A DNA stretch of 24,000 nt from Phreatobacter stygius (GCF_005144885.1 NZ_CP039690.1:6226873-6250872); one strand, 5' to 3'. Positions 13,663 to 17,322 are shown, counted from the first letter of the stretch. The notes: generated by a model from the sequence alone, not told the origin. Program-made: numbers and translations.

Positions 13663-16600
13663 GTGATCCAGCCCAGGCGAGAACAGCCGATGCCGAAGCG
13701 CTTGCGCCCGTTCCAGGTCGTTGCTCCTCCTGCCAAGCGCCAGCACGGGCCGGCCACCGCCTGGAGTTGCCTGCGCTACGTGGCCGAGATCGCCCCGTCG
13801 ATGCCGGGCCAGACCATTGCGCTGGCCAATCAACGGGACCAGGCGTTGATCTGGAAAGCGGCCGCCGTGCACCCGATGCAGGCGCTCGAGAACGAATACC
13901 AGGGCATCGTCCACGACGCGGTGCGCGGGATCGTCGATCCCGACCAGCGCAAGGAGGTCGAGTCCCGGGCGATGGGCGAGTTCTTCCTGTTCGACGCCGG
14001 CCCCCCGCGGCTGCTCGGCGTGCCGCGCGGCGGCGAGTATCGCGGCGAGCGGTTCCCGATCATGGAGGATCGCCTGCGGCACGCCCGCAAGGCCTTGCGG
14101 CCCCTGGCCGAAAGCATTCAGGCCCAGGCCGATCCGGAGGACGTGCGTCGGTCGCTGCTCCTGGTCCTGCGTGAATTCGACGTCGTATTGGGCTCGTTCT
14201 TCACCATTCCGGGATCAGGGCGCTGGGGCGCGCCGATCCTCGACACGGCGATCCGCGAGTTCGCCGGCCTGGATCGGCGGATCCGCCGGGCCGCCAACTG
14301 GCAGCAGTTCGAGGCCGCCTGGAAGCAGCTCGACACGGGTTCGGCGGCGCTCGAAGAGACTTTCGAGAAGAGCGTCTCGGCCGTCCAGATGTTCTACGCC
14401 ATCGAGGGCTTCTATCTGTTCCGGCTCCTGGTGCGCTACCGGATCGAGTCCAGCGAGATCATCCGCTCGGGCGATGCGACGGCGGCGAGCAAACAGCTGA
14501 CCAAGCTCATCGCCAACGGTCATCCCTGGCTTTCGACCTGGCTGCGCGACAAGCTGCTCGAATTGAACGCGCTGATGCAGATCGTCGATCCCTCGGGCAA
14601 TACCCTGTTCTTCCTGAAGGGCGGGCGCGCGATCAAATATCTCGAAGGACAACCCCAGACCGGCGAGAACGACTGGGACACCCAGATCGTCATCAATCCG
14701 AACCTGCCGGCGGCACAATGGTATCAACTGTTCCAGGACATCCAGAACGCGGTGCTGCTGGCGCTGCAGGGCTTCAAGCGCGAGCTCTATGTGCTGATGC
14801 AGCACGAGGCGACGACCTTCCAGGATGAACTCGACACCGTCGCGCTGCCGGCCCCGGTCGTGGTCGATCCCGGCCCTCAGCCTCTCGACCCCGACACGCC
14901 GGTTGCCGACGACGAGCAGATCGCCGAGCGCTATCGGATGAACTGCAAGGCCGAACTGATCGATGTCGGCCTGCCGCGCAACGACACCGTCGAGGCGATG
15001 GAGCAATGGGCCCAGTTGAACGGCAAGCTGCTGATCGCCGCCGACGGCATGCCCTATCCGGGCTATCTCTACTACATCAACGAATATCTGATGCTGGTGC
15101 GCGAGGTGTTCACCGGCCTGTCGCCGTCGATGGGCAAGGCGCCCGCCCGCATCGAGCGCCTCTATACCATCCTGACCTTGCCCGACGCGGGCCTCGAGGC
15201 GGCGATCCAGGAGGAACGGCATCACATTCCGGCCGACCTGCTGGCCCAGTCTCTGGCCGCGATCGATCAGGTGCACGACCTGGCGGTCAAGCGGGCCCTG
15301 ATCTGCATTCTCAGCCAGTTCTGCCGGGCCTACGCCCTGGATCTCGATCCGAACCTGGCCGCGTGTTTCGACGGACTTTTTGCCGGCAACCTCGGCAATG
15401 CCGCTGAGCTCGCGCAATATCCCGCCGATCTCAACGATGCCATCCGCGGTTATGCGCAATGGCGACCGGCCTATCGGCTGCTGTCCGACGCCGTCGGTTA
15501 TGCGCAGTGGATTTCCAAGGCGATGAGCGCCCATTTCGAGGCGCGCGGCAAGTTCATGGAGGAGCAGCAGGCGCTCATCGGCAAGTTCATCCAGTCGATC
15601 TACGCCGCCTCGGTGTTCTCGCCGGGAGAGGAGCTGGAGGCGCAGATCGCGGTGACCGGCAGCCTGGCCGCCTTCCTTCATGCCGACTACACCAAGTTCC
15701 CCCGGCCGGGCGAGCTCCAGCCCGTCGATGTCGCATCCCTGCGCATCTATGCCTACAACCCCGAGGCCAATCCCGCGATCGTGATGCAATTGGTCGCGCC
15801 GCTGGTCACCGAATATCTCGACGAATATCCCGGCACCTTCGTCGAGGTCGCGCCGATGGATCCGGCCGGCCCGCTGCGGTTGTTCTGGCCGAGCGAGGTG
15901 GAGATCAAGCCGTTCAAATATGCGCCGCTGGTGATCACGATCGGTGTCGCCAGGCCCGGCATCTGGCCGCTGCTGGCCTATATCTGGGATCATCCGACGC
16001 TGGGCCTGCGTGACCTGATCATGGAATATCGCGGCCGCTCGGCGGCGGTCGAGGAGTTCGGGGCGCGCGCCCGGCTGAAGGAGACCACCGCCGCGCTCAC
16101 CGAAATCCTGCTGCGCGCGGAGAACCCGGAGCCGCCGCCGGCACCCTTCGGCCGGCATCTGATGATCAGCAGCGCGGCCATGGCCATCGGCCCGAAGGCC
16201 GATTACCCGGCCAGCTACTATCAGGACGGCACGGCCTACAAGATCACCATGACCGGCAACCGGGAGGCCTTGCGCCAGGCGCTCACCTTGCCGAGAAGCG
16301 ACCAGGACCGCACGCTTGATCTCCTGGTGCTCAACCAGGACCACGGCGGCATCGTCGGCGGCGCCGGCCAGTTCGGCCAGTGGTCGGCCGCCGACCTGCA
16401 GACCTATCTCGTCGAGCCGATGCGGCGCTCGGGCCTACGCGCGCGCATCCTCGTGCTCGACTTCTGCGTCTCCACCGCGCTGCTGCCGACCTTTGCGGCT
16501 CTCTGCGCCGAGGACGGAGTGCTCTATTCCAACGTCTACAGCATCACCGAAGTGATCATGACCAGGGATCTCTGGGGGCGGATCAAGGACGATCTCGCGG

Positions 16601-17322
16601 CACGCGACCGCAACGCGATCCGCGCCGAGATCAATGACGAGATGACGGTGATCACGCGCGGCGTGACCGGCCTCAGCCACCTGCCGGAGGTGCAGCATTC
16701 CACGCAGGAGGAGATCGCCGGCTATCTCGTGCGCAATCCGGGGGATCTCGACGCCGTCTCGGCCTTCTTCACCTTCTGGGAGATCGGCCAGATCTTCTAC
16801 ACGGCCTATGGCAACAGCCAGACCATCTGGGGGCAGCTGCGGGCGCTCATCTTCTCGACCCTGCCAGGCAATATCGGTCCGGCGGAACGCGCCATCCTCG
16901 GTTATGTGCCGGCACAGTTTGCCAATTTCAACCGCGACCAGGTGCAGGCCATGGTCACGGCGCGAGCCGTGCAGATCCTGACCGCGCCGCAATACCAGAT
17001 AGAGCGCCCGCCGCCTGCCAACGCGACGTTCCAGCAGCTCTGGCTGCATTTCAACCCGTACCGCTGCAATGTCCTGGCGCTGTTCACCGGGCTTGCGCGC
17101 TGCCCGACGCCGTTCACGGTCTATGATTCCGGCGACCAGAGCCTTACCCTGGACACCGACCTGTCGGCCGCGCCGGTGCCGGCGCCGGTGGCCGCGCGCA
17201 TCAATGTGGTGCACCACATGTCGTCGCAGGACGTCGACGAGGTTCTCGACATCCTGCAGAGCCAGGCAGGCCAGGCGGTGGTCCAGCAACTCGATCCGCA
17301 GGTCAACTACCTGCAGCAGTAG
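13663..17322 (+). CDS. 1219-aa multidomain protein of unknown family, with a Pol-beta-type nucleotidyltransferase-like signature and a clan-CD cysteine-peptidase-like His/Cys signature
   Basis: Uninterrupted ORF with strong GC3 bias. Start is GTG 13663 or ATG 13690. FFLKGGRAIKYLEG-x6-NDWDTQIVI (nt 14608-14691) followed by KAELIDVG fits hGG...DxD...E/D. LDLLVLNQDHGG (His codon 16342-16344) and ARILVLDFCVST (Cys codon 16465-16467) are 41 aa apart. The antisense 709-aa ORF is a shadow. Confidence 0.85.
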   Translation: MIQPRREQPMPKRLRPFQVVAPPAKRQHGPATAWSCLRYVAEIAPSMPGQTIALANQRDQALIWKAAAVHPMQALENEYQGIVHDAVRGIVDPDQRKEVESRAMGEFFLFDAGPPRLLGVPRGGEYRGERFPIMEDRLRHARKALRPLAESIQAQADPEDVRRSLLLVLREFDVVLGSFFTIPGSGRWGAPILDTAIREFAGLDRRIRRAANWQQFEAAWKQLDTGSAALEETFEKSVSAVQMFYAIEGFYLFRLLVRYRIESSEIIRSGDATAASKQLTKLIANGHPWLSTWLRDKLLELNALMQIVDPSGNTLFFLKGGRAIKYLEGQPQTGENDWDTQIVINPNLPAAQWYQLFQDIQNAVLLALQGFKRELYVLMQHEATTFQDELDTVALPAPVVVDPGPQPLDPDTPVADDEQIAERYRMNCKAELIDVGLPRNDTVEAMEQWAQLNGKLLIAADGMPYPGYLYYINEYLMLVREVFTGLSPSMGKAPARIERLYTILTLPDAGLEAAIQEERHHIPADLLAQSLAAIDQVHDLAVKRALICILSQFCRAYALDLDPNLAACFDGLFAGNLGNAAELAQYPADLNDAIRGYAQWRPAYRLLSDAVGYAQWISKAMSAHFEARGKFMEEQQALIGKFIQSIYAASVFSPGEELEAQIAVTGSLAAFLHADYTKFPRPGELQPVDVASLRIYAYNPEANPAIVMQLVAPLVTEYLDEYPGTFVEVAPMDPAGPLRLFWPSEVEIKPFKYAPLVITIGVARPGIWPLLAYIWDHPTLGLRDLIMEYRGRSAAVEEFGARARLKETTAALTEILLRAENPEPPPAPFGRHLMISSAAMAIGPKADYPASYYQDGTAYKITMTGNREALRQALTLPRSDQDRTLDLLVLNQDHGGIVGGAGQFGQWSAADLQTYLVEPMRRSGLRARILVLDFCVSTALLPTFAALCAEDGVLYSNVYSITEVIMTRDLWGRIKDDLAARDRNAIRAEINDEMTVITRGVTGLSHLPEVQHSTQEEIAGYLVRNPGDLDAVSAFFTFWEIGQIFYTAYGNSQTIWGQLRALIFSTLPGNIGPAERAILGYVPAQFANFNRDQVQAMVTARAVQILTAPQYQIERPPPANATFQQLWLHFNPYRCNVLALFTGLARCPTPFTVYDSGDQSLTLDTDLSAAPVPAPVAARINVVHHMSSQDVDEVLDILQSQAGQAVVQQLDPQVNYLQQ

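Follow-up and report, generated by a model that had tools for sequence, protein, structure and literature searches.

The window analysed here, a stretch of 24,000 nucleotides (nt) from Phreatobacter stygius (NZ_CP039690.1:6226873-6250872), contained a refractile body (R-body, or reb) locus at about 9.4-19.3 kb, and the last gene of its reb operon encoded a protein of 1219 amino acids (aa) whose C-terminal region carries a putative cysteine protease domain. Positions below count from the first nt of the window and lie on the forward strand unless stated otherwise. G+C content was 64-73% per kb (~67% overall), and the flanks around the reb locus encoded ordinary metabolic enzymes. The gene for the 1219-aa protein (13663-17322) was called from a GTG start; the probable true start is an ATG at 13690, nine codons later, which gives the 1210 aa of the database copy (P0001). 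Upstream lay the remainder of the operon (9471-13184), comprising five RebB-family genes (Pfam RebB; 9471-9755, 9829-10098, 10246-10512, 10580-10843 and 10939-11175) and accessory genes: a Reb-like gene of ~158 aa (about 11172-11648), a 116-aa gene (11693-12043) and a 366-aa gene (12084-13184). On the reverse strand, a sigma-54-interaction AAA+ activator with an AraC-type helix-turn-helix (17596-19263) followed the large gene, as it adjoins the locus in other bacteria too.

Gene order and sizes in the window matched those of HP1.4, HP1.3, HP1.2 and HP1.1 after the RebB genes in Group 1 reb loci (PMC3583457), and the same operon-like array of RebB with HP1.1-HP1.4 was present in the window, in loci L001, L003 and L005, and in at least 16 species-level loci. 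In contrast, the published synteny of Group 1 loci (Raymann et al. 2013; PMC3583457) includes neither an ~800-1220-aa protein downstream of HP1.1 nor a protease-like domain. A 2026 survey of reb loci set non-Reb 'hypothetical proteins' aside (PMC13430693), and we found no description of a protein of this type in these two accounts of reb loci. The protein had 158 homologues, about 40 of them full length, and reb loci of other bacteria have its gene in the corresponding place.

Architecture and predicted fold

The first ~815 aa formed a conserved module (13663-16107), and these N-terminal ~800 residues are the widely conserved part of the protein. Three stretches, FFLKGGRA (14608-14631), NDWDTQIVINP (14668-14700) and CKAELIDVG (14944-14970), look nucleotidyltransferase (NTase)-like at the level of motifs (G-G ... 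D-x-D ... D); the module had no Pfam or PDB match. A proline-rich linker, NPEPPPAP (16123-16146), predicted with low confidence (predicted local distance difference test, pLDDT, 52-66), separated this module from the C-terminal region, and homologues that consist of the N-terminal module only stop at about this linker.

Two AlphaFold2 models were built, one of aa 800-1219 from an alignment of 36 sequences (pLDDT 92.9, predicted TM-score 0.88) and one of aa 826-1000 from 52 sequences (pLDDT 95.9, predicted TM-score 0.92), and both agreed on the order of elements. The region opened with an alpha/beta sandwich of aa 830-960 (16150-16542), the part that holds the putative catalytic dyad and on which the models, profile alignments, structure searches and substitution rates all bear. 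Its strands were predicted at aa 832-837, 860-863, 883-891, 925-932 and 948-957. The first was followed by a short helix, the second by a helix, and the third by His894-Gly895 (16342-16347), a putative general base and the glycine conserved in clan CD; after these came a hairpin (895-904), a helix (909-922), the fourth strand, and Asp933-Phe934-Cys935 (16459-16467), with Cys935 as putative nucleophile and an invariant Asp two positions before it. The hairpin appeared as two strands in the first model (model residues 96-99 and 102-105) and as one in the second (76-79). Beyond Cys935 the models placed a helix (937-947), the fifth strand, a helical bundle at aa 968-1139 (16564-17079; pLDDT above 93) that is conserved along with the sandwich in closer relatives, and a small alpha/beta subdomain at aa 1151-1219 (17113-17319), the alpha/beta elements of which span 1151-1213. 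As modelled, aa ~830-1219 thus make up a self-contained module of sandwich, helical bundle and small terminal subdomain.

The protein ended in a conserved tail, NYLQQ (17305-17319). Its general form, [N/D]-[Y/F]-L-Q plus 0-2 residues, was shared by P0007, P0034, P0048, P0121, P0129-P0131, P0136 and P0139; it was kept in most closer relatives and in some proteins of other architectures, and was absent from most of the ~600-aa and eCIS_core forms described below. The tail may form a terminal strand, serve in docking or be autoinhibitory.

The sequence-only reading of this DNA had picked out, within 16150-16662 (aa 830-1000 of the 1219-aa reading frame), a hydrophobic strand ending in H-G, a helix, and a second strand ending in D-x-C, with 41 residues between His and Cys. 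The positions held on the reading frame at 13663-17322, where His894 lies in LNQDHGG (codon 16342-16344) and Cys935 in LDFCV (codon 16465-16467), and both models reproduced the layout. A His and a Cys at this distance are meaningless on their own; conservation of the pair and its neighbours and the constraint on aa 830-960, both described below, set them apart from chance. In clan CD the two residues sit at the C-terminal ends of the consecutive parallel strands beta3 and beta4 of an alpha/beta/alpha sandwich, His before Cys; a small sheet separates beta3 from alpha3, and the His is followed by a Gly that all families conserve (PMC4357240). The window's protein has His894 after strand 883-891 and Cys935 after strand 925-932 with helix 909-922 between them, Gly895 beside the His, and the hairpin at 895-904 where the small sheet would be expected. 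Class I glutamine amidotransferases, DJ-1/PfpI proteins and pyroglutamyl peptidases carry the Cys before the His, and these identities were set aside on that order.

Conservation of the dyad and searches against known families

Gly895 and Asp933 were invariant in all 36 full-length homologues compared (33-88% identity) and Phe934 nearly so, while His and Cys were both present in 25 of them and both replaced in 11. When all 66 distinct C-terminal regions were considered, 47 had both residues, 16 had neither and two had the His alone, one of these two being a frameshifted contig. A profile search of 1.84 billion representative proteins returned 78 relatives; a further homologue search with the alignment of remote members added none. 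Outside the reb-linked clade almost all relatives read GHGG ... LDAC, with 36-48 residues between the dyad positions, the order of HG and DAC that the sequence-only reading had described as typical of clostripain-like proteins. The dyad and Gly895 were at least 90% conserved in 44 diverse relatives, and the 17 most divergent, which were 16-29% identical to the sequence heading their alignment, shared no invariant column besides L, H, C, F and G, so that both dyad residues were retained at the greatest distance. Measured against an 87%-identical orthologue, the ratio of nonsynonymous to synonymous substitution rates (dN/dS) was lowest at aa 830-960 (0.11), which marks this part as the one under the strongest constraint; it was about 0.2 in both the helical subdomain and the N-terminal module, and 0.34 at the C-terminal end. 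Since the dyad is intact and purifying selection is strong, the putative protease domain of the window's protein is probably active.

Parsimony on a neighbour-joining tree placed about seven independent losses of the dyad, every one of them in the clade whose members carry the N-terminal module. About a quarter of the reb-linked relatives (P0013, P0018, P0020, P0027, P0034-P0039, P0059, P0123, P0132, P0133 and P0136) lacked both residues; they had combinations such as R/G, S/G, A/S, E/P, K/D, E/A or S/P in place of the pair and kept Gly895, Asp933 and the fold. Judged by their sequences, this quarter are apparent pseudoproteases.

Profile comparison pointed towards clan CD. With human legumain, the query sequence of which was verified against PDB entries, hhalign gave an E-value of 0.02-0.03 for the 52-sequence profile (2 of 200 column shuffles reached the score) and of 9e-4 to 1.1e-3 for the profile of the 17 remotest relatives, where the score of 29.4 compared with 12.3 +/- 2.2 in column shuffles and was reached by none of 150. 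Every legumain alignment set the family's His on His148 and its Cys on Cys189. The remote profile also aligned with caspase-3 (E 0.024) with His121 and Cys163 in register, whereas the control alpha/beta fold CheY gave E 0.33 over nine columns. The C13 side of the comparison is shallow (Neff about 1.3), because a homologue search seeded with human legumain gave only vertebrate legumains at least 84% identical to it. In one relative, P0175, Pfam Peptidase_C13 matched residues 24-78, which are its GHGG ... LDAC segment (E 0.005, 16.8 bits); a spurious match at this level on a clan CD model would be expected ~1e-4 times, for 44 proteins and 24,736 models of which an estimated ten or so are clan CD. 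Among structures, the top Foldseek match to the whole C-terminal module was the SAVED-CHAT protein 8tl0 (probability 0.97, E 0.037, 154 columns), and CHAT and legumain (5obt) were within the top 11 for the trimmed domain.

Several results weigh against a clan CD assignment. Neither the whole protein nor the domain had a Pfam or NCBIfam match at E up to 1 or a PADLOC match at E up to 10; PDB sequence searches with the protein, the full-length profile and the 52-sequence domain profile found nothing relevant; and Foldseek against the PDB gave no match at E <=1e-3 for either model. Its best E-values were 0.02-0.04 at TM-scores of no more than 0.45, and receiver-like CpaE, adenine phosphoribosyltransferase (APRT) and a short-chain dehydrogenase/reductase ranked alongside the clan CD proteins. 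The HH-suite probability of the remote legumain alignment was only ~22%, and the C13 score of P0175 fell below the cut-off of 22.8 bits in what was a single relative. The central sheet of clan CD has six strands in the order 2-1-3-4-5-6 with strand 6 antiparallel (PMC4357240), whereas DSSP assigned only five main strands to the models; the sixth could be supplied by predicted C-terminal strands at 1151-1164 or 1209-1213. The residue before the Cys in the reb-linked clade is Phe, not Ala or Gln. Finally, the loss of the dyad in 16-19 of the 66 relatives means that catalysis is not essential to the job of the module in the reb setting.

Some of these points would suit a different explanation, namely a generic alpha/beta domain of flavodoxin or receiver type, which would bind a ligand or partner and use His894 and Cys935 for another purpose, such as metal or cofactor binding or a different thiol chemistry. 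Such a domain would sit comfortably with Rossmann-type enzymes and CpaE scoring like CHAT and legumain, with the failure of any curated family to recognise the window's protein, and with the many dyad-less relatives that keep the fold, Gly895 and Asp933. It fits poorly with a His and then a Cys at adjacent strand ends, a Gly after the His and a small residue or Asp/Glu before the Cys, which together form the clan CD signature; to our knowledge, Cys/His enzymes of other kinds with alpha/beta folds do not typically show it. Nor does it explain why alignments to two clan CD families put both residues in register while CheY does not align, why the sub-threshold C13 match falls on the same segment, or why both residues tend to be lost together, as would be expected of a catalytic pair. 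We therefore regard a non-peptidase role as quite improbable.

A clan CD assignment is instead favoured by weak signals that converge, each line being weak to moderate: the order of elements, the invariant Gly, the register of the profile alignments, the C13 match, the CHAT and legumain structures and the GHGG ... LDAC pattern of the wider family. The earlier proposal of a clan CD fold stands to this extent, with no match that is significant by conventional thresholds; likewise, the dyad proved to be conserved in most of the family and in its remotest members, and absent from a substantial minority. Sequence comparison and modelling together make it likely that the domain is a divergent clan CD-type peptidase. 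Membership is probable and not proven, because no structural or profile match was significant. The domain probably represents its own family, outside C11, C13 and C14 as currently defined, and would add a new family, so far without annotation, to a known type of enzyme.

Distribution of the domain and its genomic neighbourhood

The N-terminal module was encoded in 50 species-level genomes, and 12 of these also carried the C-terminal domain. At least 10 of the 12 loci were reb-type (among them those of Elstera, Novosphingobium, Sphingomonadales and two Phycisphaerales) and one was a different three-gene module. In eight or nine further reb loci, where the genes came in the same order, the protein consisted of the N-terminal module only. 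This module occurs alone (~785 aa), with the C-terminal module described here, or with weakly papain-like (C39/C70-like) C-termini in relatives from myxobacteria and others. Papain-like domains held the C-terminal position in P0079, P0085, P0086 and P0071 (L004 10001-13966), with matches to Pfam Peptidase_C70 (E 0.004) and Peptidase_C39_2 (E 3e-4) that were both below the cut-off; one such relative is named 'papain-like cysteine protease family protein' in NCBI. At the sequence level, this suggests that cysteine-protease C-termini are exchanged in the manner of cassettes.

Elsewhere, the domain formed the C-terminal part of solitary proteins of ~600 aa and of a 2396-aa protein. We considered whether the ~600-aa relatives share the N-terminal module of the large protein, and they do not. 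Two relatives instead had N-terminal matches to eCIS_core/DUF4157, a marker of toxins of extracellular contractile injection systems (eCIS): P0154 (E 3e-27) and P0158 (E 3e-10). The domain is thus an optional, exchangeable C-terminal addition to the ~800-aa protein that closes Group 1 reb operons, and the same domain is found at or near the C-terminus of unrelated proteins, two of which carry the eCIS_core/DUF4157 marker.

This distribution bears on the possibility that the domain acts in cis: upon a trigger it would cleave the protein that contains it, perhaps at the proline-rich linker, and so release the ~800-aa NTase-like module in the manner of C80 domains. Clan CD domains serve in this way in large toxins (PMC4357240). 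The linker between the two halves was predicted with low confidence, the N-terminal module stands alone elsewhere so that release would yield a known functional unit, and the papain-like replacements in relatives belong to another class that includes self-processing enzymes. However, in every architecture the domain lies at or near the C-terminal end, which is the position of a payload and not of a release peptidase; the eCIS_core fusions and ~600-aa proteins contain no other recognisable payload; and we identified neither a basic pocket of the inositol hexakisphosphate (InsP6) type nor a cleavage site. Release in cis is accordingly an unlikely function in our estimation.

The stand-alone ~785-aa module was widespread outside reb loci, in Burkholderiales, Acidobacteriota, cyanobacteria and myxobacteria (many of L020-L049). 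In Ramlibacter (L058 5447-10358) and a Mesorhizobium metagenome-assembled genome (MAG; L059 4685-10364) its gene came last after two genes, of 458 and 335 aa and of 473 and 549 aa, respectively; the gene for the N-terminal module was also last in reb loci and in loci with a gene pair of ~130 and ~435 aa. This conserved pair (36% identity, E 5e-67) precedes homologues of the large protein outside reb loci, as in Myxococcus hansupus (L004 8258-9977) and a Gemmatimonadetes MAG (L002 8276-9963), and also in L015, L019, L024 and L030. The ~435-aa protein had no Pfam match and carried LKLLVWNV near its N-terminus and SDHWPV near its C-terminus, which we take to resemble hallmarks of the endonuclease/exonuclease/phosphatase family. 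The possibility that the 366-aa and 116-aa genes of the window are homologous to this pair was rejected, as there was no similarity.

Other reb loci showed variation around the same core. That of Elstera cyanobacteriorum (L001), in which the large protein has lost the dyad (A/S), had three extra genes (233, 334 and 295 aa; no Pfam match) at 13722-16349 between the large gene and the sigma-54-type activator. Two Phycisphaerales MAGs (L017 and L031) contained complete Group 1-type reb loci with six matches to Reb hidden Markov models, accessory genes and a large gene with the C-terminal domain, which places these loci in Planctomycetota and thus outside the Proteobacteria that Raymann et al. (2013) covered. 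In the window, the 366-aa gene and the large gene were separated by two short reading frames that overlap but are out of frame with each other: 13184-13528 (114 aa) and 13357-13581 (74 aa), the second with an internal AEAIAERAVH repeat; syntenic loci have a single gene of 112-193 aa at this position (13184-13581 in the window). The spacer between the second and third RebB genes contained a tandem repeat of 15 nt in 4.9 copies (CCCAAGGACTTCGCG, 98% match; 10169-10241), one frame of which reads as repeated PKDFA. An inverted repeat, GCAAC-TGAAA-GTTGC (9400-9414), lay ~55 nt upstream of the first RebB ATG at 9471 and could be a regulator-binding site. Despite the conserved sigma-54-type activator next door, no canonical sigma-54 promoter (TGGCAC-N5-TTGC) was present upstream of the reb genes at up to one mismatch, and a search of the same region for a sigma-70-like site found none.

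Possible role and relation to known systems

One possible role is directed at the Reb proteins themselves, either trimming the subunits, as the proteolytic maturation proposed in the sequence-only reading would have it, or transpeptidating them into a covalent, denaturant-resistant R-body polymer. Legumain-family ligases and GPI (glycosylphosphatidylinositol) transamidase are examples of transpeptidating enzymes, and the best profile match of the domain was to C13, the family that includes transpeptidases. The large gene is co-oriented with and directly follows the reb and accessory genes, an arrangement that holds in both alphaproteobacteria and Phycisphaerales, at least 10 of the 12 domain-bearing loci are reb-type, and a Lys close to the C-terminal end is common to the Reb proteins of the window (ATKDIL, ATKKIL, ATHKIY) and could suit an Asp-lined S1 pocket. 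Nevertheless, this role is very unlikely given the reb loci of the same order that lack the domain, the repeated decay of the dyad within the reb-linked clade, the occurrence of the domain in proteins and loci without reb genes, the Reb proteins of the window, which begin directly at the conserved MAFPT..., have very short tails and show no sign of a propeptide, and the operon of Azorhizobium caulinodans, in which two of the three non-reb genes were dispensable for R-body formation (PMC5527310), although homology of these to the 1219-aa gene is not established.

Because reb loci lack the domain, the dyad has decayed repeatedly and there is no sign of a propeptide, we favour an accessory role, as effector or processing protease, over that of an obligatory Reb maturase, and the domain would not be required for maturation of Reb subunits. 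The effector activity that the sequence-only reading offered as its second option fits the distribution of the domain better than maturation does. The best overall explanation, to which we assign a probability of roughly 55%, is that the C-terminal region is an optional clan CD-like module with an accessory function, either as an effector or as a processing protease, and with targets other than Reb proteins. Cys935 would be the nucleophile and His894 the general base in peptide-bond cleavage, with Gly895 and the strand ends shaping the active site, and Asp933 may line an S1 pocket as in C11, which would direct cleavage after Arg or Lys. The most plausible targets would be proteins of a eukaryotic cell that ingests the R-body producer.

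A more specific version, which we put forward tentatively and consider unlikely, is that the whole protein is an R-body cargo or effector and a candidate for the 'unknown toxin' as which the R-body-linked killing factor has been described (PMC13430693). The cytoplasmic protein would then combine two enzymes, the NTase-like module and the clan CD-like protease. Unrolling of the R-body and the resulting rupture of the phagosome might set it free inside the eukaryotic predator or host cell, where the protease could cut proteins of that cell on the C-terminal side of basic residues. Evolution in the style of polymorphic toxins would then account for the variable C-terminus (this domain, a papain-like one or none) and for the appearance of the domain behind eCIS_core. 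Harder to reconcile with an effector is that P0154, although encoded close to another eCIS_core gene, had no eCIS structural genes within 10 kb.

Knowledge of R-bodies goes back about 70 years. Many Group 1 reb operons end with a gene for a large conserved protein, which in about half of them carries a probable cysteine protease without a database family. The use of the same domain behind an eCIS cargo marker, together with its reb position, provides a concrete candidate for an R-body-associated effector, and the domain itself may represent a new clan CD family that repeatedly evolved into pseudoenzymes. Were it merely an accessory housekeeping peptidase, the gain would be a modest one in annotation.

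Of known clan CD enzymes, legumain (C13, Pfam PF01650) gave the best profile match (E about 1e-3, with His148 and Cys189 in register), and its His-Cys spacing of 41 residues is identical to that of the window's protein; the sequence-only reading had given about 40-50 for legumain, clostripain-like enzymes and caspases. The motifs resemble each other too: both follow hhhh-x-x-H-G and hhh-(D/E)-A-C-x-(S/T), and LEACDTAS or IDACESAG in remote relatives stands where legumain has IEACESGS. The differences are that most members of the family have Asp in place of Glu two positions ahead of the Cys, that a prodomain like that of legumain is missing, that the domain belongs to a multidomain protein of the bacterial cytoplasm, and that the window's protein did not match the Pfam C13 model at E up to 1. 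Clostripain-type peptidases (C11) share the Asp of the 'DAC' pattern: Asp177 of PmC11, two residues before the catalytic Cys, is a conserved S1 determinant for Arg/Lys (PMC4850288) and corresponds to Asp933. In C11 peptidases the sandwich is likewise followed by a helical C-terminal domain (PMC4850288), as it is in the window's protein by the helical bundle at aa 968-1139. In contrast to these likenesses, there was no Pfam Peptidase_C11 match at E up to 1, no C11 structure among the top 50 Foldseek matches, and no sign in the DSSP string that the sheet extends to nine strands as in C11.

The caspase-like CHAT domain of SAVED-CHAT (8tl0), an effector of cyclic-oligonucleotide-based antiphage signalling systems (CBASS), was the top Foldseek match for the whole module and reached a TM-score of up to 0.45 for the trimmed domain, but its E-values of 0.037-0.09 were not significant and there was no link at the level of sequence. 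Neither SAVED nor any other nucleotide sensor was recognised in the window's protein, and a link between its NTase-like module and activation of the protease is pure speculation. The C80 domains of MARTX toxins and of TcdA and TcdB are likewise clan CD domains inside large multidomain bacterial toxins or effectors (PMC4357240). They differ in being internal release peptidases that are activated by InsP6 and cleave after Leu, whereas the domain of the window is terminal, has an acidic residue two positions before the Cys and showed no detectable similarity to C80. An N-terminal DUF4157 and a C-terminal toxin define many eCIS-associated toxins (PMC8213781). The 1219-aa protein has no eCIS_core and the window no contractile-injection genes, but relatives P0154 and P0158 combine an N-terminal eCIS_core with the domain in the C-terminal 'toxin' position of these systems.

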